The notes under the pieces: generated by a model
The model's database searches: none
Seen by the model: the letters and a program-made list of their open reading frames with translations, nothing else
What the model was told of the DNA's origin: nothing
Shown: positions 13,101-34,983 of the stretch, one piece after another
Position numbering within the stretch: position 1 is the first letter of the stretch
Layout of the letters: each line of letters starts with the position of its first letter
Translations under genes and position numbers: made by a program
Assembly: GCF_036588685.1 (NCBI RefSeq)
Contig: NC_086374.1
Coordinates: 69,626,001 to 69,690,000, forward strand
DNA from: Mytilus trossulus
Taxonomy: Eukaryota
Reading direction: 5' to 3'
Length of the DNA stretch: 64,000 nt

Positions 13101-16100
13101 ACGATGATATTTTTGCCGATTTAACTTTATTCTTAGCAATTTTCTGATACCAGGTAGTATCGTGGAACACGCTATCTGATAGTTGAATATTTTGCATATA
13201 TATATGATACATGTACAATAATAGAAGAATTTAACCATATGCTTTTCTTTTACAATGTCCTTAATGTTTGTAGGCGAACTCCCTTCTGGATCAATCAGTT
13301 TGTCAAACATGGCAGAAAATGGTTTGAATTTCCTCTATGACCGCGTTCTTTATTGGGTTCGCCAAGGTCGTATATTACCACCAGAAGCCCCGATTTTACC
13401 ACCACCACCTCAACCAAAACCTTCCAAACTACTGGATAAAAGGACATCACCACGATCAGATACAAGCAGTGGTTCTAGACCTAGTGTTGATGCAAAATCA
13501 TCAAAGTCAGACACACGAAAGTCGGAAGTAGGTGTTAAACAACCTGCTTCGTGGTTCAGATATCTGGAACAAAAGAAAGTTGCTAAAGTTTCTAATAGGA
13601 AGACAAATAACCAGGGTAGGTTTCTTACTGTGTTAGAAGGACAGAAAATGGAGTTGATAGAAAACAATGAGAACAAAAAATCTCTCAGTCCATTAAGACC
13701 TACGCCACCAAAAACCGAAAAGCCGTCCTTGAAACGAGGAAGAAAACGAAAAGGTGCACGGTCAAGTGATAAAGAGAATTCCGATACGGATTCAGGATTA
13801 AATATAAGTTTTACAACATACAGAGGGAATAGTGACTATGGTGAAAATCACATGTCTTTTGAAGACATCGAACCAATCAAAGAGGAATCACCATCTCCAA
13901 GGAAAATGTCATCTAAAAGGCTTGTGAAATACATGAAGAAAGACAAGAAAGAAAAGCAGGCACAACGTCGGCAACAGATGATACATTTCGTCAATAAGGA
14001 AATTGAAGACATTGAAATAGGTAAGTTAAATGAAATCTAAATGCCATGGTATGTTTAAGATTGGAATAATGATTATTTTCAATAAACAAACAATGGAATT
14101 GAAATCAGTAAAACTCAGCGATCATAAAGGTACCAGACTTAAGCTTATAAATTGTTACAGCGTCCTTGACGCGCGTTTTGTCTAAATAACATTTATCAGT
14201 GACACTCATTTTAAGATGATTGGAAGACCAAATCAAATACGAAGTTCCGAAGCACCTGAGATCGCCCCCAGTTTTTGGTGTGGTTCGTGTGGCTTATTCT
14301 GTAGTTTTATATATGTTGTGTCATTTGTACTATTGTTTGTCTGTTTGTACTTTTCATTTTTAGCAATGGCGTTGTCAGTTTATTTTCGATTTATGAGTTT
14401 GGTTTGACTGTCCCTCTGGTATCTATCGTCCCTCTTTTGGAAAACATTGAAAACAAAAATATCATAAAATTGCGCCAAATATGTCTAAGGCAGTTATGCT
14501 TGTTATAGTTACCCTTTGCGTTTCGAATCGAATGATTCATTACGTTCATCAACAGAACATTAAAATAGAAAGAGAAAGCTTGTTAAACGTACTGAGATGA
14601 ATATGAAGGAATATCGATGTGTATTTATATAATTCGCATAATTTTGCATAATCTATACTACTAATGAAAGAGACCGATTTCATTCAGCCGCAACTGTTCT
14701 GAAACCATACAAAGCCGGAAATATTTGTAATATGACGTATGTACATGTATGTAGTGTTTTGTACTGTCGTTGAAACAATTCTTTTTCACAGAAAACGCCG
14801 ATTTGCGAGATGGTATCTCAATTCGGTGACCATTATCGGTTTTGGTCATATACACTTTCGCGAAAGCTCACTCCGCGAAATTTAAACACTTGCCCAATAG
14901 TACCGCAATTTTGCGGGCATCTTATGTATTCAAAATTCTTTCGTTAAAGCTGTTAGTAAAATTAAAATGTGTATTATAAATCAAATATTATTAAAAATTT
15001 ACAAAATACAAAAAATGTCTTTTATAGCATATGTAGATGCCAGATACATAGACTGTTCTCAAAGAGCTGAAGCATGTTTACAGACCATTACAACCTTTGA
15101 TGGTGAAGCACTTCCGAATGTCATGTCAATGATTGGTAAACTCCATAGCTACATCGGAAATTCAGCAATCGAAAACAAAGAATTTGAAATGGCCTTACGT
15201 CATCACGAACGTGATTTACAAATTGGTGAAGACAGGTGTGTATTTCAAGCAGATTCAATCTCATTTGATATCTTATAATATGTTTGTGAAATATTCACTG
15301 ATACATAGAGGATTTTTTTTTTATATTTGAACAAAATCACATTTTACATTTCCTTCTTGATAGATATGGACGAGACAAATTAAAACCGTAACAAAACAGA
15401 GTTACCGACGTACAAATATGACAGAAGTCAATAAAAAATGAAACATTTTAAATTCCTTAACATCGGATTCTATCAAAACTACGAGTAATTATTTGAAAAA
15501 ACCCACTCAATCCACAACTCCAAGACATATAAGATTGATAAGGTCGTAGTTGTATGAAACAAAAGTATCAAAATTTCGAACTGAAGCCAACATCATCTGG
15601 GGCAAGCGTGCTTGGGAGTTAAAATCTACTTTTAAAATAAAACATTACCCATTTAGCATAATGTATATGTGTGTTCAATGACCTCTTTGTAAATTGGAAC
15701 CTCAAACAAAAAGTAGAATAGCAAATTAACAAAAACCGTAGAGACAACATAAACAGAAGAAGGAAACCTTTGATTGTACAAAAATAACACATTATTTCAA
15801 TCTCAGAATACCTCTTCTATTATGTTCATTATCTTCGAAAAAATTTGAAAAAAATTATCTTATAAACATGTTTCATGCCCAAAAGCATCAAAAGTTTTGA
15901 CATTATGAAAACATGTTTTATGTCAATATAATTCAAGTACTGCAGTACTGAGAACTGTGTGGGTTATACTTTCATAGGCCTGCAACATTCAAGCAAAAGA
16001 AATAAAACCAATCACACCATACGTACTAATTCAGAAAAATTAGTTTGATTTACCTGGTAATAATGTTATGTCTATTTGTTCCAGTGACGACACAGAAATG

Positions 16101-22700: not shown

Positions 22701-24843
22701 GCAAATTATAAGAAAAAAGTATCAGAATACTCAGACGTTCTTAAAGATCATGCACCCATTATTAACGTATACCTTACGGTCACCTCTAAGCGTACGTCTG
22801 CCACTTGCATCTAATTTGAAAGAAATATGCATAGTAATTTGATGGACTTTATTACAATGCATACATATACAATGAATTACAAAAATAGAATGGTAATTAA
22901 CAATATACTAGTACATCAATTTCAAAAAAATCAGAAGGTATTATAACACTGACTCAAAATTAGTCACGGTTTCCTTTTTAATCAAATTCGGGAAGAGCCC
23001 GAGAAATTAATAGCACCGACACGAAACACGGAAAAAAATAAGAAACACGAAGCACGATCATCGAACCAAACACGAGAAATCGAAAATTAAAAAGTCAAAA
23101 CACGAAAACACGGGAAAAAAAGACCGAAAACGTTGCACGAAAATAACACTTTTCCACCCTCATTGCAGCTTGACTACTATACACCGTCATCCTCGTTGTT
23201 TTTTTTTCAAGTGCTGTAAACTCGTACTATCCTCCAGGGAAAACATAAAAAATAATAATAATAATTAGTTAGCTTATTAAGTTAGCGACAATTTTCCTGT
23301 TTGAGAACTCTTTTTTTAATGCTTAAAGATGTTTAAATTTATGCACTCAGGTCTATTTAGGTTTTCAAATATTAGCTTAGTCTTGATTTAAATGGGTACA
23401 TGGGGTCATACAGAATAGAGAATAATGAGCAATATGTATATATATATTATATATTATAAACGAGTCTAAATTGAAAACTACGTTCAAACCTATGATTGCG
23501 TTGGATAAAAACCGCAATTTTATACGTGTGCATGTAAAACAAATTTCGTTGTAGAAGGGTCTGAAAACAGCACAAACAACATTTTCCAAAAGACCAAAAA
23601 AGTGAAAAAGTATATTTAAACAAAACGCATTTGACTAACAGGTCGAACAACTGATGTTCTTTAACCCTGCTGACTGCCATTGGCGATTGCCAAATAAAAT
23701 TGATCACAAGATGTAACAAAAATGGATCTTAATTAAATTTAATACTAAACAGAAAACAATTAACATGTGGCCACGATGTTATACCACAAACATAAGGTGT
23801 CAATATTTTTGTTTTGTACACCAGATATATATGCAGAACATAGGCAAAAATATGATGATTAACGAAAAATGAATATAAAGGAAAGACAATAAAAAAAAAC
23901 ACCAATAAAGAATAGAGAAAATAGTCTACAAAATAAAAGAATAAAGAAATGACGAGACCCCATCATTAGCCTTTTTCTGTCTGTTTTACGCGGTTTTCTT
24001 TTCTCATTTTTAATGGGATATATTTTTATACGATAAAACTGAGAATTGGAATGGGGAATATGTCAAAGGGACAACAACCCGATCAAAGAGCAGACAACAG
24101 CCGAAGGCCACAAATAATATGAATGATAGATAAAGTCAAGAGTTCTTTGATCTTCTTAACAGAGGATAAAGTACATTACATATCGATGAAGATAAGACAA
24201 GCAATTTGTCAATATTTGGTGTCAAATTATCTCCAACCACATATATTGGTACTTTGCGAATAAATGGTTTTTATCTGCATTTGTCTACGTTGGATTTATA
24301 TGACAAAAAGTAATTATTTCAGAAAGGTAGTACCAATAAGGTCTAATAAAACCGTTAATATCCAGCATCAAATCTACAGAATTATTAGGTATAAAACCAT
24401 AAAATGTTTATGCTTTCAATGTAATTACAGCAGTTAATTGCTATGAAAGGGAAATAATCGAAAACATGTCTTCGGTATATCAGTAACAAGCTAAATATTT
24501 CTAGTTTTTTTGAATAGATCTATCTTTTCCATTTCGTTTTCTATTGGGTTCATTTTCCTTATTCCTTGATTCATAACTTTTCTAGACTCAGTTGTAGAGA
24601 TTTAACACTTGTCAAATGTTCACGATTCCATTATATCATTAGCTCAGTAGTCAGTATTTCAGTATTGACATGATTGAACAAACTTTACTAACATTATCCG
24701 TTTTTAAATTTTTAAATTATAAAGAAACTAAGGCAAAGTTGGCTTTAGATGAATTTGGCTATTTATTTTAGGAATTTTTTAGGTATAGCTCTTCAATGGT
24801 TTCGGTACTTATACATCTTCGGATTTCAATTGTTTAACTTTGA

Positions 24844-24884
24844 GCGTTCCTGATGATGGTAAATCCAGAAAACGCTTCGGACGC
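24844..24884 (+). ncRNA. Type I hammerhead ribozyme motif in a dispersed retrozyme/Penelope-type repeat
   Basis: gcgttc CTGATGA tgg taaat cca GAAA a cgc t TC ggacgc: core boxes intact, 6-bp stem I, 3-bp stem II, minimal stem III; predicted cleavage after 24878. Confidence 0.65.
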
Positions 24885-25613
24885 AATTAATTATAAAACG
24901 TGTTGTTTTCATTTTTTTTTATCTCTTTTACGTCTGATCTAGTTTGGGCATGTTTCAGAGCTGCTGTATCCTTGTCGTACACATCTCTTTTAAAACTAAA
25001 TCAAAATAAAGCGAAACCCGGAAAATATCAAATTCTAAAATGATCAGACTTGTAATTTCGGGGCCTTTCATAGCTGAATATGTAATATGGGCTGTGCTCA
25101 TTGTTGAAGACCGTACGGTGACCTATAGTTGTTAATTTCTGTTTCATTTTGAAATCTTGTGGAGAATTGTCTCATTAGCAATTATACCACATCTCCTTTT
25201 TTTATATTTCCTATCATGTTATAAATCGAGAGACTCTTGCATCAATAAAGTGTTGATATGCAATAAAGAATAGGTCAGGACAACAATTTCAAATACAATG
25301 AAAGCAATAGAAATTCAATATTAATCAACCTTTTTAACTATAGATTTTTACACAGAAAGCAATCAAATTGTTTATTTTCAATCTAGTATATTGAAAAGCA
25401 TTACATAATATACCGAGTTTTCTAAAGATTTCAAAAAGATTAGAAAAAAGATTAATAGAAACCGGAATGATTCATTATTTGCCATCAAAACTAATCCTTA
25501 AGTTTATTATTCATTTTTCCTTATCTTGAAAATGTCTTTCTTTCCCATTTCCCTCAGTTTCTTGTGGCCTGCTATACATTTATTGGATATAAACAATGAA
25601 TAAGTCACCTTAC

Positions 25614-26174
25614 AAACTGGTTTATATCGAGTATTTCTCTAATCCTCAAAACTATAAAGTCTATTTATCAATTTGTCCTATCCCACGTAGCATTATTGCA
25701 TACGTCACATAAAAGCGATTTTCTGTGGTACCTAATAGAAAAAAACTGGTTTCGTGTTAAATAACTTGGATAACCGAAAACTTCATTTTTAAAGTCGAAG
25801 ACCTGTGCAATCTGCTTTTCTAATTTCGACATCTTAATTGGCTTCTATCCATCATATTTCCTCCTTTGAAGTTCCTCGTTTAAATCTTTTGACTTTTTAA
25901 AACATATTTGGTTTGTTATTTCCCAAATTTCTTAGATATCAAGTGTTCTTCTCTTAAAAATACTTTACTCCAAGATGTTGTTCTGAATGTTATATGGTTC
26001 CTTTTATGCTTGCTATAGTGTCCTGTCCAGAAGCTTATATAGCAAGCAAAATCGGGACTTTGGATCACCAACTTGACCACTTTGTTTCGGACGTAGAAAC
26101 AGCTTTAGGTGTAATTCGGATTTGATTTAATTCCACATCTTCATAAATCAGCACTGGAAGACACAATCTTTTAA
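25614..26174 (-). pseudogene. Decayed coding exon of unknown family (copy 1)
   Basis: catgcag|...|gtaagg borders; about 185-codon frame (KRLCLPVLIYEDVEL...KWSSW.SKVP...) broken by stops and frameshifts. Confidence 0.45.
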
Positions 26175-26950
26175 CTGCATGTTCAAAGTAAATTAGAACA
26201 GAGTTTCAATACAGAAAAAGTTAAAATGAAACAAATAGTTCTGACTCAAACTGTAAATAAACGAATCGCATTAAAATGTTAATCAAAGATTAGTTTTAAA
26301 GGAGAAAAAACAAGGGATAAGTGATATCAATCCATAACATAAAACAATTAAATGCACATAAACAATTACTTATTTCAAGTGGCATCATATCCCATTTATT
26401 TGTAACGAAAATCGTATAAGTACATACCATGTGTTTTTAATATCTGCAGCCTCATTGTAAAAGTTCTGTCAAAGGTAGAATACTTTCAGAACATTTTGTG
26501 CCATGTACCAAGTCAGGAATAGGACAGTTTTCCATTCGTTTGATGTTTTTGAGCTTTATTGATTTTGCTATTTGATTAGGAACTTATCGTTTTGAATTTT
26601 CCTCTGAGTTAAGTATTTTTGAGATTTAACTTTGTATAAATGTTGATAATTGTAACAGCTATGATATACTGACTTCTTCTGAGTAATTCCAAGTAAAAAG
26701 AATAAAATACTATCTTCATTTTCATTGAACAGATAATAACGATAACCCTTAACTGTACAACAAGAAAAATATATGTAACAAACAACTATAAAATGTATTT
26801 CGCTTATTGCTATTCTTTGGAAAACCCTTTCACAAACATGCACCTATAAATAAAGTAATCCTGTTAGAAATACTTTATACCTGCTATACATCGGATAACT
26901 ACTGTTTAACTTAATAATATTGCATGGGTGACACTATTTATGTTTATATT

Positions 26951-27121
26951 AAAAAATTCCCGAGGCACATAAGTATAACGGGAATTGATTGTCTTCTTGC
27001 GCATGTGTAATACATGTACGTGTAGGTCTAGGAATTTTTGGCGCCAAAAAATTAGGTTGTAAAGTGACTGTTTTATATAGTTAATTCTAGCCTGTACTTC
27101 GTACTGTGAACATCGTATTTT
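26951..27121 (+). repeat. Split direct repeat A1
   Basis: 171 bp, 3 mismatches to A2 (31131-31301). Confidence 0.95.
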
Positions 27122-27145
27122 GTGAGTGCCGTTCACCGTCACGCT

Positions 27146-29977
27146 ATGGATGACTTAGAAAATAATGTGAAGCGTATCGTTAGTGAAGAAGTAAATAGAT
27201 CACAGAATGAATTTTTATCTAAGTTGGACAGTTTATTTACTACTAAATTTCAAGTTTATGACCAGCAACAGAAGGAACGTTCGGACGCACAGTTCAACCG
27301 TATTCACAATGACCTTTTATCAACAGACAGTTACAAATTTCAGAGGAAAAGTTGTGAAGATCAATTTAAGTTCAACCAGAAAGTGTCTGTCGCGTTGAAA
27401 GAAGCAGAAGCTGTTATCGAGCCAAAAGACCCATCTGCCGCGAGGGCTAAACAGAAGATATCTGAAGGTATTGAACTTTTAAATTATCGGCAAAAATTAG
27501 TAAAGATGGCAGACTCTTCAGAATGTGGGTGGAAATTGGTTCAGGAGTATACCGCAAATCCTTTGGCGGACGATTCAGAAGATGACAGAAAGATATTTCG
27601 AGCACAAAACAGAGCGGAAAGGAAGATCAAAGCAGACAGAGTAAAGAGGAGATCCCGCGCTGAGCTTTATGTAAAACCAGCGAGTTCCAGTGGAAGCAGA
27701 GATAGACAGACAGTATCAAGGAAGCCTGGTGTTTGTTATAATTGTTACAAGCCTGGTCATTGGCAGAATGAGTGTCCTGAAAAGAAACGACCAAAGTTAA
27801 GTAAAATTTTTGATATATGTTGTAATTTAGCTTGGGATTTGAGTTACAAATCAAATGTTGAGTTAAAAGGGGGGAGTCGTTTATTGAATTCTGCTCACAA
27901 AGAGGTAAACGAAACAATGGTCAATTGTGTTAACGGTTCAGTCAGGTATGACGAGAGTAATGACCAGACGTCTGGTCATTTAAATTTACAGGTGAATGTT
28001 TTGACACCAGTAGGTAAATTAAATAAGGCAATACACAAATGGAAGGAGACTGGTACAAGTGAGTACATTTTAAAAGTAATAGAGCAAGGCTATGGTATAC
28101 CATTTAAAACTCTTCCAGACAGTTGTGTTCTCAGAAATAATAAATCATCTTTAGATAATTCTGTTTTTGTAAATGGTGAAATTTCTAAATTATTAGATAA
28201 GAAGTGTATTTCAGAAGTACACGAAATACCGTATGTAGTAAATCCGCTAACGGTAGCATATAACAGATCAGCAAAACCTAGATTGGTTCTAGATTGCAGA
28301 CATATCAACGAGTGCATACATCAGTTTAAATTTAAGTTTGAAGATGGGTCAGTTGCCAAGCAACTATTTAATAAAGGAAATTATCTGTTTCGCTTTGATT
28401 TAAAAAGTGCTTATCATCACATAGAGATATTACCAGACCACAGAAAGTATTTAGATTTTAGTTGGCAATTTGAAGGGACAACCAGATATTATGTATTTAA
28501 TGTTCTTCCTTTTGGAATTGCTAGCGCTGGTCATATATTTACCAAACTTACAAAAGAAGTTGTTAAGTACTGGAGGAGTCAAGGTTTTAGAATCCTAATG
28601 TACTTAGATGATGGTTTGGGCGGAGACAGTAATTTCGATTGCGCACACATTGTTAGCACTTTTGTAAGAGAAAGTTTGACAGAGTTTGGTTTTTTAATAG
28701 CAGAAGAGAAATGTATATGGTTGCCTGTACAGAATATTACTTGGATAGGGTTATTTTGGGAAATGCAGTTTGGAAAATTGAGTATTACCGAGGAGAGAGT
28801 CGAAAGACTTCTTTCGGTTATTGACAAAACATTGATAAGTGTAGGTAAAGGCAAGCTTTTGTATAATGCTAGATTTGTGGCTGGTATTGTTGGACAGATA
28901 ATATCAATGATGTCTGTAATGGGAAACGTTTGTAGACTTAGAACTCGAGAATTGTACAATTGTCTTATAATGAGAGCAAGTTGGAACTCGCTTGTAGTAT
29001 TGAATTCTGTAGCTATTGAAGAGCTATATTTTTGGTTTGAGAACTTAAGAAAGTTCAATAGAAAGGGTTTTAATCTGCATGAGTCAGATTTTTGTGATTT
29101 TGTGGCGTATACTGACGCATCAGATGTCGGCTTTGGGGGATATGTAGTCCCAGCTGATACAGAGTCTGTCTGTGACTCTGATTGTATTATGAAAATGACT
29201 GATTGTGGTCTAGAAGTTCCTTATAACAGTTTGATAACTGTGACTAGTAACTGGTCGGTATCTGAAAGTGTTAAAAGCTCTACATGGAGAGAGCTTGAAG
29301 CAGTAAGTAGAGTAGTTAAAAGTTCTGTTACAATGCTGGAAAATCATACAGTTCAACTGAATACTGATAATAAAAACGTTACAAGCATAATTAAGAACGG
29401 TAGTAGAAAGTTAGATCTTCAAGAGATTGCTTGCGATTTAAATGAATTGTGCACAGAAAACAATATAAGTATTAAGACACAATGGGTTCCTCGGGAACAA
29501 AACACAATAGCTGATAATTTAAGTAGATATTCAGATTGTGATGATTGGGGAATTCATTTTGATGTGTTTGACATGCTTGATGAGCTTTGTGGAAAACATT
29601 CTATAGATAGATTTGCTACTGATTATAACAGTAAATGTTTTAGGTTTAATTCAAAATGTTGGTGCAAAGGTACTGAAGCTATTGACGCTTTCACGCAAAA
29701 TTGGCAAGGAGAAAATAACTGGTTGGCGCCACCGCCAAATTTGATAGCCAAGGTCATTAGAAAAGTATGCAACGATAGCGCGGACAGTACTCTTGTTGTT
29801 CCATTTTGGAAATCAGCTCCATTCTGGGCATTATTACACAATTCGAATTGCACTTTTGTTGAGAGTAAAATGCGGCTTACAAATAAAAACTTAATTGTAA
29901 GAGGTAGAGGTAATAATGGTATTTTTGGAGTAAATCCTTTGAATTTTGCAATGATTGCTTTTAAAATCAGATTTTGA
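27146..29977 (+). CDS. Gag (CCHC knuckle)-reverse transcriptase-RNase H-DNA N6-adenine methyltransferase-like polyprotein, 943 aa
   Basis: Gag CYNCYKPGHWQNEC; RT RLVLDCR, FDLKSAYHH, VLPFG, YLDDG; RNase H YTDAS, RELEAV, TDN, WVPREQNTIADNLSR; MT-like IDRFA...DAFTQNW..ENNWLAPPP...TLVVPFWKSAPFW. Confidence 0.93.
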   Translation: MDDLENNVKRIVSEEVNRSQNEFLSKLDSLFTTKFQVYDQQQKERSDAQFNRIHNDLLSTDSYKFQRKSCEDQFKFNQKVSVALKEAEAVIEPKDPSAARAKQKISEGIELLNYRQKLVKMADSSECGWKLVQEYTANPLADDSEDDRKIFRAQNRAERKIKADRVKRRSRAELYVKPASSSGSRDRQTVSRKPGVCYNCYKPGHWQNECPEKKRPKLSKIFDICCNLAWDLSYKSNVELKGGSRLLNSAHKEVNETMVNCVNGSVRYDESNDQTSGHLNLQVNVLTPVGKLNKAIHKWKETGTSEYILKVIEQGYGIPFKTLPDSCVLRNNKSSLDNSVFVNGEISKLLDKKCISEVHEIPYVVNPLTVAYNRSAKPRLVLDCRHINECIHQFKFKFEDGSVAKQLFNKGNYLFRFDLKSAYHHIEILPDHRKYLDFSWQFEGTTRYYVFNVLPFGIASAGHIFTKLTKEVVKYWRSQGFRILMYLDDGLGGDSNFDCAHIVSTFVRESLTEFGFLIAEEKCIWLPVQNITWIGLFWEMQFGKLSITEERVERLLSVIDKTLISVGKGKLLYNARFVAGIVGQIISMMSVMGNVCRLRTRELYNCLIMRASWNSLVVLNSVAIEELYFWFENLRKFNRKGFNLHESDFCDFVAYTDASDVGFGGYVVPADTESVCDSDCIMKMTDCGLEVPYNSLITVTSNWSVSESVKSSTWRELEAVSRVVKSSVTMLENHTVQLNTDNKNVTSIIKNGSRKLDLQEIACDLNELCTENNISIKTQWVPREQNTIADNLSRYSDCDDWGIHFDVFDMLDELCGKHSIDRFATDYNSKCFRFNSKCWCKGTEAIDAFTQNWQGENNWLAPPPNLIAKVIRKVCNDSADSTLVVPFWKSAPFWALLHNSNCTFVESKMRLTNKNLIVRGRGNNGIFGVNPLNFAMIAFKIRF

Positions 29978-31008
29978 TTGTTGTATTTCTTTTGCACAGG
30001 AATAAAGCAAGAGCAGTTTGTGCGTGACGCCGTGGTACATAGTGGAATTGATGAAACTCACCCTTTGTACAGTTCGGTTGCCAGCTTATCAACACGTTTA
30101 TTGGGATCTAGAAGTGACAGTACTGTGAAAAAATATTACTATGGTTTTTTAAAGTGGGAAAAATTTGTTAGTAAACATTGTTTAATTTCTATGCCTGCCT
30201 CGCCTATACATATTGCTTTATATTTGTCTAATTTGTTAGATTCCGGATCAACGTACAGTACGGTATCATCTGCTGTTTATTCAATTAAATGGGCACATGA
30301 AATGTGTGGTCAAATTGACCCTACAAATAACTCTTTTGTTGAAAATTTAGTTGAATCAGCTAAAAGAACTGCTAAACCTGTTGTTAATAAGAAAGACCCA
30401 GTCACTACTGATATCTTAATTCGGTTATGTTCTATGTTTCATTTTTCTACAGATTTACTGGTAGTTAGGGATCTTTTGATGACTTTGCTAGGTTTCAGTG
30501 GTTTTTTACGTTTTAATGAGTTAAGTCAGCTTAGATGTAACGATTTTTTCGTAAAAGAAGAGCATTTAGTTATTAAGATTAGGCGAAGTAAGACTGATCA
30601 GTACACAGATCAGGTGATGAAATTTTAATTTGTAAAGGTCATACTTTGGCTTGTCCTTATGCTATGTTTTTTAGATATGTAAGTTTAGCTGAATTAGTTT
30701 TGGATAGTGATATGTTTTTATTTCGACCTTTGTACAGAAGTAAGAAAACATGTGCATTAATTAGTATTAACAAACCTATTAGTTACACTACTGCTAGGGA
30801 GTGTGTTATTAAGAGATTAAGACTAGTTGCACCTGAATTGAATCTTGGGTCTCTTAGGTCTGGTGGTGCCACTATGGCGGCAAATTCAGGTGTCAATGAA
30901 AGGTGCTGGAAGCGCCATGGTAGGTGGAAAAGTGATTCAAGCAAAGACGGCTACGTAGCCGACTCTGTAGAAAGTAGGTTAGCCGTATCTAAAACTTTAG
31001 GCTTGTAG
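29978..31008 (+). pseudogene. Tyrosine recombinase (YR) of the element, disabled
   Basis: GFLRFNEL (R), SKTDQ (K), SLRSGGAT (R), HGRWKS and DGY (Y) are present. A 2-bp AC duplication at 30605-30606 shifts the frame, and the His of HxxR is missing (LNLG-SLR). Confidence 0.9.
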
Positions 31009-31044
31009 TATATTTATTTTCTTATTTTTCTATCTTTGTTGCTC

Positions 31045-31301
31045 TATGCAGTACTCGAGCTAGTCAACAACATAAGTTTGTGTTGTGTTTTTCTTTATAT
31101 AGTTAAGATGTATTAAGTGGAAAGAAGACTAAAAAATTCCCGAGGCACATAAGTATAACGGGAATTGATTGTCTTCTTGCGCATGTGTAATACATGTACG
31201 TGTAGGCGTAGGAATTTTTGGCGCCAAAAAATTAGGTTGTAAAGTGACTGTTTTATATAGTTAATTCTAGCCTGTACTTCGTACTATGAACATCGTATTT
31301 T
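31045..31301 (+). repeat. Internal B1-A2 junction of the split direct repeats
   Basis: B1 (86 bp) directly abuts A2 (171 bp): GAAGACT|AAAAAATTCC. Confidence 0.95.
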
Positions 31302-31741
31302 TAAGGGTTTTTTTAAGGAAAAAAGATTTGCATAAATTTGTATTTGATAAATATATTGATTTTTATGTAGGTTGATTGGCTATACAAACGTAATCGTATT
31401 TAGACTTTTGTACCAAAACTTTTCATAGCCCTTGAGTCCTAATGACTCGCTTTCTTTTCTATTTCGATATTTACAAACAAAATTATGTTTTTCTTTTTCT
31501 CATTTGATAAGTGAGGTCCAACACTTAGAGTTTCGTTGGCATGGACAAAAGGACACAGGTTTCCTAAAAGGGTTTTTCCTGGGCGGCCACGAAACATTCA
31601 TTTATTCAGTTATTCTAATACAAAAAGGTCAACATTGATGAGTATATATTTTTGTTGAACAATGATGTTATTGTTTTCACATTGTATAGTGTATAATATG
31701 TTTATATTGATCATTTGTCTTATTAAATCGGCAGCTCACAA

Positions 31742-31827
31742 TATGCAGTACTCGAGCTAGTCAACAACATAAGTTTGTGTTGTGTTTTTCTTTATATAGT
31801 TAAGATGTATTAAGTGGAAAGAAGACT
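31742..31827 (+). repeat. Split direct repeat B2
   Basis: Identical to B1 (31045-31130). Confidence 0.95.
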
Positions 31828-32395
31828 TTCAGATATCTTGTTGGACTCATCCGGGTCTCCGCTCTGTATGAAAAGCACATATACTTATTTTTTATATTCA
31901 TTTTGTGCTTATGTGCTTTGGTTGACATATGCGTTTGTTTTCATTGTGATTAAGATCATCATACAATCTTGTTTGCTGTTTTACTATTCTTCAAAATGTT
32001 ATCTATCATATCTATTTGGTTTGTTTACACATTGTTGTCAATAATGGAACTTTATGCTACTGTTTACAAGTGAGAGGTATAGCTAGTTACAAACCCAGAT
32101 ATAATCTAGTGCTTGATTCATAACTTTTCCAGACTCAGGATGATGTAGAGATTACAAACTAGTCAAATGTTGACGACGATTCCATTATATCATTAGCTCA
32201 GTAGTCAGTATTTCAGTACTGACATGATTTAACAAACTTTACTAGCATTATCCGTTTTTAAATTTTTAAATTATAAAGAAACTAAGGCAAAGTTGGCTTT
32301 AGATGAATTTGGCTATTTATTTAGGAATTTTTTACGTATAGCTTTCAATGGTTTCGATACTTATACATCTTCGGATTTCAAATGTTTGGCTTTGA

Positions 32396-32437
32396 TCGTT
32401 TCTGATGATGGTAAATCCAGAAAAACGCTTCGGACGC
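32396..32437 (+). ncRNA. Duplicate copy of the type I hammerhead motif
   Basis: cgttt CTGATGA tgg taaat cca GAAA a acgc t TC ggacg. Confidence 0.55.
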
Positions 32438-32734
32438 AATTAATTATTAAACGTGTTGTTTTCAATTTTTTATCTTTTTAAATGTCTGTTGTGGTTTGAT
32501 CGTGTTTTAGAGCTGCTGTATCCTATTCGTACACATCTCTTTTAAAACTAAATCATAATAAAGCGAAACCCGGAAAATCTCAAATTTTAAAATGATTAGA
32601 CTTGTCATTTCGGGGCCTTTCATAGCTGACTATGCTATATGGGCTTTGCTCATTGTTGAAGACCATACGGTGACCTATAGTTGTTATTTCTGTTTCATTT
32701 TTGGTATCTTGTGGAGAGTTGTCTCATTAGCAAT

Positions 32735-33348
32735 TGTTACGGCCAGAAATCGCCTTTAAATTGTAGCCAACAAAAGACACAAATCAATAGTAAAATTTAA
32801 CAATATTTATTATACAAAAGTTTACAAGAAGTATTACACAAATATTACTGTCAACTTAACTGTCAAAATATGACTCCAATCTGTATCCGGAAATCTTTTG
32901 GAATCCAATCTGAATATTACGTTCACTATACTAAGGTCACAATCCAGTATGATGTTGTTTGTAGAATAAAAGTGTCAACCCAAATGCTGTGAATACTAAT
33001 GTCTATCGATGTCTAAGTCTAAGTTTAATTCTGAGAGTTTAACTTTTGTGTCTGTATATATAGTGTTGTCATGGAAAATTCTAGAACACTCTATAATGGA
33101 ACATTGTGGAAAGTCCTAGAAAGTTACAACGGAAGTTTCTAGTAAACTAGAAGTTTATATTACGCATCTTTTATTATTATCATTCTGGAATCATCAAATA
33201 GAAAGTTCCAATCATTCCATAAGTATCTGTGATTGTTCCAGTGATTTCTAAACTGGACAGTTATAAGATTATTTGGTAAACAACTATCAGGCCATACAAA
33301 ACAAATTAGGCCAACATAAATAAACATAATAATTACAATAACATAACA
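32735..33348 (-). mobile_element. Solo LTR (Gypsy-type), 614 bp
   Basis: TGTTA...TAACA termini and 4-bp TSD CAAT; absent from copy 1 (CTCATTAG CAAT TATACCAC); TATA and AATAAA on the minus strand. Confidence 0.8.
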
Positions 33349-33724
33349 CAATTATACCACATCTTCTTTTTATATTTTCTATCATGTTACAAATCGAAAG
33401 ACTCTTGCATCAATAAAGTGTTGTTAAGCAATAAAGAATATGTCAGGTCAACAATTTCAAATACAATGAAAGCAATAGAAATTCAAAATTAATCAACCTT
33501 TTTGATTTTAGATTTTCCCACAGAAAGCTTTCAAATTGTTCATTTTCAATGTAGTATATTGAAAAGCATTACATAATGTACCGAGTTTTCTAAAGATTTT
33601 AAAAAGATAAGATTTTTTTTAATAGAAACCGGACAGATTCATTATTGGCCATCAAAACTAATCCTTATTTTTTTAAAATTTATTTTCCTTATCTTGAAGG
33701 TGTCTTTCTTTCACATTTCCGTCT

Positions 33725-34983
33725 TGTGGCCTGCTATACATTTATTTGATATAAACAATGAATAAGTCACCTTACAAACTGGTTTATATCGAATATTTCT
33801 CTAATCCTCAAAACTGTATAGTCTATTTATCAATTTGTCCTATCCCACGTAGTATTATTGCATACGTCACATAAAAACGATTTTCTGTTGTACCTAATAG
33901 AAAAAACTGGTTTCGTGTTAAATAACTTGGATAACCGAAAACTTCATTTTTAAAGTTGAAGACCTGTGCAATCTGCTTTTCTAATTTCGACATTTTTTTG
34001 GCTTCTATCCATCATATTTCATCCTTTGAAGTTCCTCGTTTAAATCTTTTTACTTTTAAAACATATTTGGTTTGTTATTTCCCAATTTTTTTCGATATCA
34101 AGTGTTCTTCTCTTAAATACTTTACTCCAAGATGTTGTTCTAAATGTTATATGGTTCCTTTAATGCTTGCAATAGTGTCCTGTCCGGAAGCTAATATAGC
34201 AAGCAAACTCGGGACTTTGGATCGCCAACTTGACCACTTTGTTTCGGAAGTAGAAACAGCTACAGCTGTATTTCTGATTTTATTTTATACCACAACTTAC
34301 TAAATCAGCATTGGAAGACACAATCTTTTAACTGCATGTTCAAAGTAAATTAGTGTGTGGCCTGCTATACATTTATTGGATATAAACAATGAATAAGTCA
34401 CCTTACAAACTGGTTTATATCGAATAATTCTCTAATCCTCAAAACTGTATAGTCTATTTATCAATTTGTCCTATCCCACGTAGTAATATTGCATACGTCA
34501 CATAAAAACGATTTTCTGTGGTACCTAATAGAAAAAACTGGTTTCGTGTTAAATAACTTGGATAACCGAAAACTTCATTTTTAAAGTTGAAGACCTGTGC
34601 AATCTGCTTTTCTAATTTCGACATATTAATTGGCTTCTATCCATCATATTTCATCCTTTGAAGTTCCTCGTTTAAATCTTTTTACTTTTAAAACATATTT
34701 GGTTTGTTATTTCCCAAATTTCTTAGATATCAAGTGTTCTTCTCTTAAATACTTTACTCCAAGATGATGTTCTGAATGTTATATGGTTCCTTTAATGCTT
34801 GGAATAGTGTCCTGTCCGGAAGCTAATATAGCAAGCAAACTCGGGACTTTGGATCGCCAACTTGACCACTTTGTTTCGAAAGTAGAAACAGCTACAGCTG
34901 TATTTCTGATTTTATTTTATACCACAATTTACTAAATCAGCTTTGGAAGACACAATCTTTTAACTGCATGTTCAAAGTAAATT
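33725..34983. repeat. 631-bp tandem duplication carrying two more copies of the decayed exon (33776-34331, 34407-34963)
   Basis: TGTGGCCTGCTATACATTTA...GTTCAAAGTAAATT occurs twice head to tail. Confidence 0.92.

Follow-up and report, generated by a model that had tools for sequence, protein, structure and literature searches.

How can a retrotransposon make a recombinase that has no start codon of its own? The question is raised by an element at positions 26950-31827 of a 64,000-nucleotide (nt) stretch of the Mytilus trossulus genome (NC_086374.1, positions 69,626,001 to 69,690,000, forward strand), the whole of which is called the window below. The element carries an open reading frame (ORF) for Gag and Pol, followed by a frame for a Cre-like tyrosine recombinase (YR). 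A first-pass annotation, made from the sequence alone, suggested that YR is produced by splicing, with the whole of pol removed as an intron, as a fusion to the N-terminal part of Gag. Every coordinate that it gave was correct on recomputation. Our best explanation of the evidence, which we hold with moderate confidence, is that the family does make its recombinase from a spliced messenger RNA (mRNA), as a Gag(N)-YR protein joined through Gly108 of Gag. The unspliced RNA would be both genome and Gag-Pol mRNA. For the spliced form, a phase-1 donor within gag, the likeliest being the one on Gly108 (exon end 27467), would be joined to a conserved acceptor just past the pol stop (30000), taking out all of pol. 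The resulting protein would begin with about 107 helical residues of Gag and continue into a complete Cre-like recombinase, which lacks a usable start of its own. The spliced mechanism overall is probable but unproven.

The recombinase frame and its acceptor

The first-pass annotation had noted that YR has no ATG near its beginning, and this is correct: no in-frame ATG occurs before 30191, 64 codons past the codon that the splice would split, and in one of two relatives found as DNA (L001, described below) there is no Met within 75 codons. The closest solved relative of YR is Cre (PDB 7rhz, 1nzb and others, E 4e-14), which also gives a fold match. The RSxxTxxxY anchor of YR aligns with Cre residues 37-41. 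The N-terminal DNA-binding helices of Cre presumably lie ahead of the region that matches Met 30191, and given this alignment a protein started at that Met would lose them. The recombinase of the window copy is left with no start codon that it could use.

The element is a decayed copy of its family. Its YR is broken into two frames (29978-30628 and 30598-31008), and the His found in the His-x-x-Arg motif of relatives is missing, so that this copy is unable to make an active YR. Gag-Pol stays wholly open in the same copy, whereas YR is doubly inactivated (30598-31008). The breakage was passed over in the first-pass annotation, as were the position of YR in the Gag-Pol frame behind a single TGA and the stronger donors at 28058, 27991 and 27945.

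Splice sites were scored with approximate matrices. As had been claimed, there is an acceptor, TTGTATTTCTTTTGCACAG/G (the slash marks the exon boundary here and below); its AG occupies 29998-29999 and, relative to the YR frame (29978-30628), it is in phase 1. It scores first among the 315 AGs in 27170-31008 and belongs to the best 0.1% of all 6125 AGs that the window contains, and its signal is therefore beyond chance. A scan of genome contigs gave 27 pattern hits, which led to two relative loci, L001 and L002, with 44% Pol identity. They sit in bacterial metagenome-assembled genome records (Thiodiazotropha, Sedimenticola), and are eukaryote-type retrotransposon contigs, most likely present as host contamination. 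In both (2/2) a branch-like motif accompanies a pyrimidine tract and a CAG/G that is in phase 1 of YR, and their acceptors, 66-123 nt past the pol stop, rank 3/158 and 4/246 among AGs.

The same position can be followed in proteins, for which the best 150 of 4806 matches were used together with additional search matches. Among 45 YRs that were not flagged as fused and that reach at least 44 residues ahead of the anchor, 20 carry an acceptor-like footprint at -46 to -35 from it, compared with 2.8 ± 1.5 in 2000 shuffles (maximum 9), 0-6 of 41-45 in 11 other control windows and 4.8% of 3385 non-coding stretches. The motif (rich in F, Y, C, L or I, then [STAVLI][GD]) was defined after viewing the data, and the set holds about five gene-model fusions, which dilute the count. 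This better-controlled test supersedes an earlier statistic, in which 30 of 36 were above the control mean and 16 reached or exceeded the control maximum. Footprint-bearing sequences are spread across the YR tree, at a median identity of 35% (51 sequences, midpoint root, labels assigned by eye). In alignment, YR homology starts exactly at the junction Gly. Judged by eye, 18 of 28 gene models with other upstream sequence enter YR at this acceptor, seven enter elsewhere and three are not alignable; where the split residue is not Gly (C, W, R, R, S, S), all six are consistent with phase 1. One Mytilus californianus model (P0172), labelled partial, begins without Met just ahead of the junction Gly. 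Conservation of the acceptor in phase was among the checks put forward with the original proposal, and it is borne out both by the two loci and, beyond controls, by the footprint. Judged from these comparisons the acceptor is real and family-wide, and YR is very probably spliced through it.

In one YR clade (P0086, P0112, P0134 and P0139, support 0.95) the residues ahead of YR end in Gln. The acceptor may have shifted to phase 0 there, and a matching phase shift would therefore be predicted in the Gag donor of that clade.

Donors in gag and competing routes

The donor proposed in the first-pass annotation is present and in phase 1. Joined to 30000 it would remove an intron of 2532 nt and leave an open fusion, in which G and GA make up the junction codon, Gly, again as proposed; it is the top phase-1 donor in Gag that yields an open fusion. 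Gly108 is found in all 14 Gags compared (36-89% pairwise identity), preceded by E or Q in each. The residue after it is I or M in 13 and L or F in none, and these neighbours are therefore compatible with an AAG/GTR donor. Twelve gene models leave Gag within its N-terminal half, six of them precisely at Gly108, all with a split codon whose first base is G. The window's Gag row is misaligned in one of the alignments (A4).

Equivalent joins are present in gene models, which are predictions and not RNA, of two other taxa. P0036, from the pearl oyster Pinctada, joins Gag to YR at the residue equivalent to Gly108, and P0160, from the acorn worm Saccoglossus (34% YR identity), does so at the equivalent residue in a confirmed register; the two lie on opposite sides of the YR tree. 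A pattern G-[IML]-x-[LIM] is common to Gag past the donor and YR past the acceptor. Over its first 107 residues Gag matches a Mytilus coruscus model (P0001) at 99% identity, and the Gag arm is predicted to form helices at 2-59, 70-90 and half of 96-124. In the structure model of P0036 the junction falls at a helix break or hinge of low local confidence (predicted local distance difference test, pLDDT, 57-63), and the YR core-binding domain after it is predicted to be confidently folded and Cre-like; P0036 is short of about 100 YR residues, and its model informs the junction region only. A complex prediction for Gag 1-175 with Gag 1-107 scored 0.02 with alignments unused, and is no evidence either way. 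Taken together, the sequences suggest that YR is probably made as a Gag fusion, and we infer that the splice is used in vivo, leaning towards Gly108 (27467) as its main donor. The Gag arm would act as a tether that holds YR at the Gag particle or the cDNA.

Several points weigh against this reading. In score the donor at 27467 is mediocre, ranking 20/213 among the GTs in 26950-29960 and 2/40 within Gag, and 6.3% of the 7128 GTs in the window score as high, so that chance could account for it if this copy is taken by itself. Gly108 is predicted to lie mid-helix within a hairpin, and helix packing could account for its invariance. Neither L001 nor L002 has a gag, and four of the six exact Gly108 exits belong to a single Mytilus family. 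Only two of seven Gag-to-YR models use the exact Gly and four join elsewhere; P0153, from Mytilus edulis, joins in register but with eight unlike residues, and P0138 joins at a later K[ILM]S motif, equivalent to 27800. These junctions were counted by eye, the automatic junction pattern having missed most models. For five of the Gag-YR fusions a source is given, and in every case it is an NCBI or submitter gene model and hence a prediction. None of 12 contig-derived (ena/lgn) matches is a fusion, a weak counterpoint because those contigs may be DNA. On the acceptor side, the strict footprint is absent in 25 of the 45 YRs, and many pol-to-YR gene models bring scattered donors onto this acceptor, so that gene finders appear to tie nearly any donor to it. 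What stands of the original proposal is splicing at the acceptor, supported family-wide, with the join predicted in gene models of two other taxa; its choice of donor is less secure, as further phase-1 donors, including the strongest of this copy, also yield in-frame fusions.

Donor 27945 also outscores 27467. Donor 27524 scores above it too, and was rejected because its junction with 30000 reads stop. One of the six exact Gly108 exits is in a Mytilus edulis model (P0010), in which a related Gag exon is spliced via this donor into host SLC13A2/3/5 exons, possibly as an exonisation or an annotation error.

The best surviving alternative to Gly108 keeps the acceptor and moves the donor. A later phase-1 site, either 28058 or 27800 past the zinc knuckle, would give a full-length Gag-YR that keeps the conserved Gag core and the RNA-binding knuckle, and whole Gag would be a more obvious packaging tag. 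The site at 28058 is the top of the 213 donors and in frame with YR, and K[ILM]S follows the knuckle in all 12 linkers, with P0138 making its join there. However, the Ser at the 28058 site is Asn in P0180, P0184 and L002, the equivalent GT in L002 lies in another phase, and 27800 ranks merely 65/213; we regard a later donor as unlikely. The K[ILM]S motif could itself be either a weak phase-1 donor or a conserved +1-frame stop (TAA here).

It is more doubtful still that YR is made alone, whether translation begins at an internal Met or a near-cognate codon, reinitiates past pol, or uses a short-leader spliced RNA; the acceptor may in that case only expose YR or end a Gag-only mRNA. Relatives with a YR ATG of their own, which the first-pass annotation had named as evidence against its splice, were found in part: counted in codons from the split codon, L002 carries Mets in frame at -15 and +29, and of 125 free YR ORFs, 10 open with an internal Met located 11 residues ahead of the anchor. 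Some families could thus make nearly whole YR alone, which counts against the Gag fusion, and near-cognate start codons lie within 30002-30047 of the window. On the other side, the window and L001 have no such Met, the starts of free YR ORFs are scattered from -139 to -6 relative to the anchor, and the internal Met is preceded by about 25 conserved residues. Nor does a leader exon serve in this copy: from the upstream ATG in repeat A1 (27003) all three downstream phase-1 donors create a TGA at the junction, and for the ATG at 27014 no donor is in phase. Trans-splicing, as generally understood, would supply no start codon here.

That nothing is spliced, and that the signals are chance features of AT-rich DNA exploited by gene finders, is very improbable. 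The joins are known from gene models only, and gene finders do use scattered donors with this acceptor; against this, the acceptor keeps its position, order and phase to a degree that exceeds the shuffled and non-coding controls, and keeps them in both DNA relatives, and YR homology begins at the acceptor point. The least credible route is read-through of the pol stop into a Gag-Pol-YR polyprotein, for although the window YR lies in the Gag-Pol frame behind one TGA (29977 is the last base of the pol ORF and 29978 the first of the YR frame), the idea is largely refuted because YR is out of the pol frame in both DNA relatives, with a double stop in L001 and a YR frame closed past the pol stop in L002, and the spacers between pol stop and acceptor in the window and these relatives (22, 66 and 123 nt) resemble the end of an intron.

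A possible Gag-only RNA and the layout of the element

A single Gag-Pol ORF requires a means of making excess Gag (PMC5580714). The phase-0 donor at 27991 might provide it, since its join to 30000 would end the protein directly after Gag (Table 1); the two sites are compatible with copia-type Gag expression, in which intron removal places a stop right after Gag. The phase-0 reading of the acceptor is Glu-stop in L001 too, and reaches a stop after three codons in L002. QV[SN], the amino-acid trace of CAG/GTRA, occurs in 9 of 12 otherwise variable linkers compared with 0.9 expected, or by lineage in 5 of 8 compared with 0.4, and the third YR residue permits such a stop in 24/24 hand-picked YRs (background 75%). 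There are caveats: off-frame stops are common in AT-rich DNA, the L002 equivalent of donor 27991 is weak, and the P0009 model uses one QVN as an acceptor, for which reason a short linker intron, as in BARE1, is an alternative. One acceptor with several donors would give Gag-Pol from unspliced RNA, Gag via 27991, and Gag(N)-YR via Gly108, and the recombinase would reach the particle by way of its Gag arm; that such a code is shared by PAT-like elements from bivalves to hemichordates is a tentative suggestion. L001 has a phase-0 CAG/GTATGG at bases 9-17.

The Gag-Pol ORF starts at the Gag ATG (27146) and has neither a frameshift nor a stop at the gag/pol boundary. Broad family searches (atlas) merely confirmed the integrase and zf-CCHC families. 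A fold search with Gag gave no matches at E<=0.001; its top fold match (Z 8.6, root-mean-square deviation 1.1 over 58 residues) is a generic helical hairpin and unspecific. A scan for sigma-70 promoters found nothing above shuffles, but this is a bacterial consensus, irrelevant to a eukaryote.

Table 1. Features of the element in window coordinates. Donor ranks are among 213 GTs and the acceptor rank among 315 AGs.
Feature	Position	Strand	Basis or remark
Repeat A1 (split direct repeat, element 5' end)	26950..27121	+	172 nt, 98% identity to A2
Gag-Pol ORF, 943 amino acids, uninterrupted (Gag, CCHC knuckle, reverse transcriptase, RNase H, methyltransferase)	27146..29977	+	ORF list and domain search
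Proposed exon 1 (Gag residues 1-107 and first base of Gly108)	27146..27467	+	322 nt
Phase-1 donor AAG/GTATTG on invariant Gly108	27465..27473	+	rank 20/213; Gly in 14/14 Gags
CCHC zinc knuckle	27731..27781	+	PF00098, residues 196-212, E 4e-5
Weak phase-1 donor TAA/GTAAAA at K[ILM]S past knuckle	27798..27806 (exon end 27800)	+	rank 65/213
Strong phase-0 donor CAG/GTGAAT; joined to 30000 reads Glu-stop, giving Gag alone	27989..27997 (exon end 27991)	+	rank 2/213
Strongest donor of this copy, CAA/GTGAGT, phase 1, in frame with YR	28056..28064 (exon end 28058)	+	rank 1/213
Reverse transcriptase domain	28292..28753	+	PF00078, E 4e-14
RNase H domain	29099..29527	+	PF17917 and PF13456
Dam-like methyltransferase domain	29531..29785	+	PF05869, E 1.6e-4, under curated cutoff
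Pol stop TGA overlapping the sole branch-point-like TTGAT of the last 60 nt (A at -23)	29974..29978	+	
Polypyrimidine tract and CAG/G acceptor, phase 1 of YR frame	29980..30000	+	rank 1/315; kept in L001, L002
Proposed exon 2, Cre-like YR, broken here (frame change ~30600-30628; His-x-x-Arg without His)	30000..31008	+	ORFs, motif, homology
Repeat B1	31045..31130	+	86 nt, 100% identity to B2
Repeat A2	31130..31301	+	partner of A1
Repeat B2 (element 3' end)	31742..31827	+	starts 440 nt past A2

By the structural definitions given in section 7 of PMC4157794, the element is a Mytilus-type Pat1-like YR retrotransposon of the echinoderm form. It has split direct repeats in the order A1...B1-A2...B2, with a 440-nt spacer ahead of B2; a pol with reverse transcriptase, RNase H and methyltransferase, the last falling under the Pfam cutoff here, with PF05869 precomputed on the relatives P0002, P0177 and P0180; a YR on the same strand with the internal repeats 3' of it; and a zinc finger in Gag. 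Assignment to Ngaro was rejected, since the split direct repeats fit but Ngaro elements have no methyltransferase by the same definitions. A DIRS1-like assignment was also rejected; no inverted repeat was found at the element ends, just two short pairs upstream of the element.

The spacer between A2 and B2 (31302-31741) is unique sequence with an ATTAAA at 31722, and could either belong to the element or have been inserted later. There are no further copies of the element within the 64-kb window, and a search of plasmid and phage collections gave no match. Host repeats flanking the element (24560-26140 vs 32107-34929) recur at 7.5-8.2 kb spacing on either side. Elsewhere on the + strand, at 13225-14040, there is a stop-to-stop ORF of 271 amino acids.

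Comparison with known systems

In long terminal repeat (LTR) elements, the integrase enters the particle as part of Gag-Pol. YR retrotransposons encode their recombinase in an ORF of its own at the 3' side. If it is true, a spliced Gag-YR fusion would explain both how YR is translated and how it is packaged, and stand-alone YR annotations in these families would miss the N-terminus. Retroviruses and gypsy have a spliced env, and foamy viruses a spliced pol. The proposed mechanism resembles these in that a 3' ORF that has no separate ribosome entry becomes accessible once the internal genes are spliced out; it differs in that there a short leader at most is added, whereas here it would be a structural arm of about 107 residues, on a Cre-like recombinase. 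Cre itself, the closest solved relative, is an independent protein, translated from its own start codon.

No published report of spliced Gag-YR expression was found, the main DIRS reviews, Repbase and supplements lying outside the search. The available text of PMC7192593, PMC9341512, PMC4157794, PMC5633606, PMC6681497, PMC13465315 and PMC11506328 does not describe it, that of PMC3266345 has no occurrence of 'intron' or 'splic', and that of PMC8547959 none of 'splic'. Within the available parts of this literature we found no route for the translation or packaging of YR in YR retrotransposons. A prior mention in the papers of Goodwin and Poulter, in Poulter and Butler 2015, in Repbase or in supplements is rather unlikely, though far from negligible. 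An influence of Gag on the choice of integration site has been proposed for the Ngaro elements of Cafeteria (PMC8547959), and a Gag arm on YR might be a route for such an influence; the link is speculative.

Compared with the echinoderm-form Pat1-like elements (PAT group, DIRS order) as described in the available part of PMC4157794, in which neither splicing nor a route of YR expression is given, the present element has Gag and Pol in one ORF and 440 nt between A2 and B2. Spliced Gag RNAs are made by the Ty1/copia elements copia of Drosophila, BARE1 of barley and EVD of Arabidopsis (PMC5580714; PMC3735527). The copia intron spans the whole pol region, with a stop after the junction (PMC5580714; PMC3735527), and that of BARE1 is short (PMC3735527). 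Like copia, the Mytilus element has a single Gag-Pol ORF for which splicing would rebalance the proteins, and the stop after the copia junction matches that of the 27991-30000 join. Unlike the proposed Gag(N)-YR splice, those described for copia, BARE1 and EVD in these sources yield Gag only, and in none of them is the integrating enzyme, which LTR elements encode within Pol, attached to Gag.

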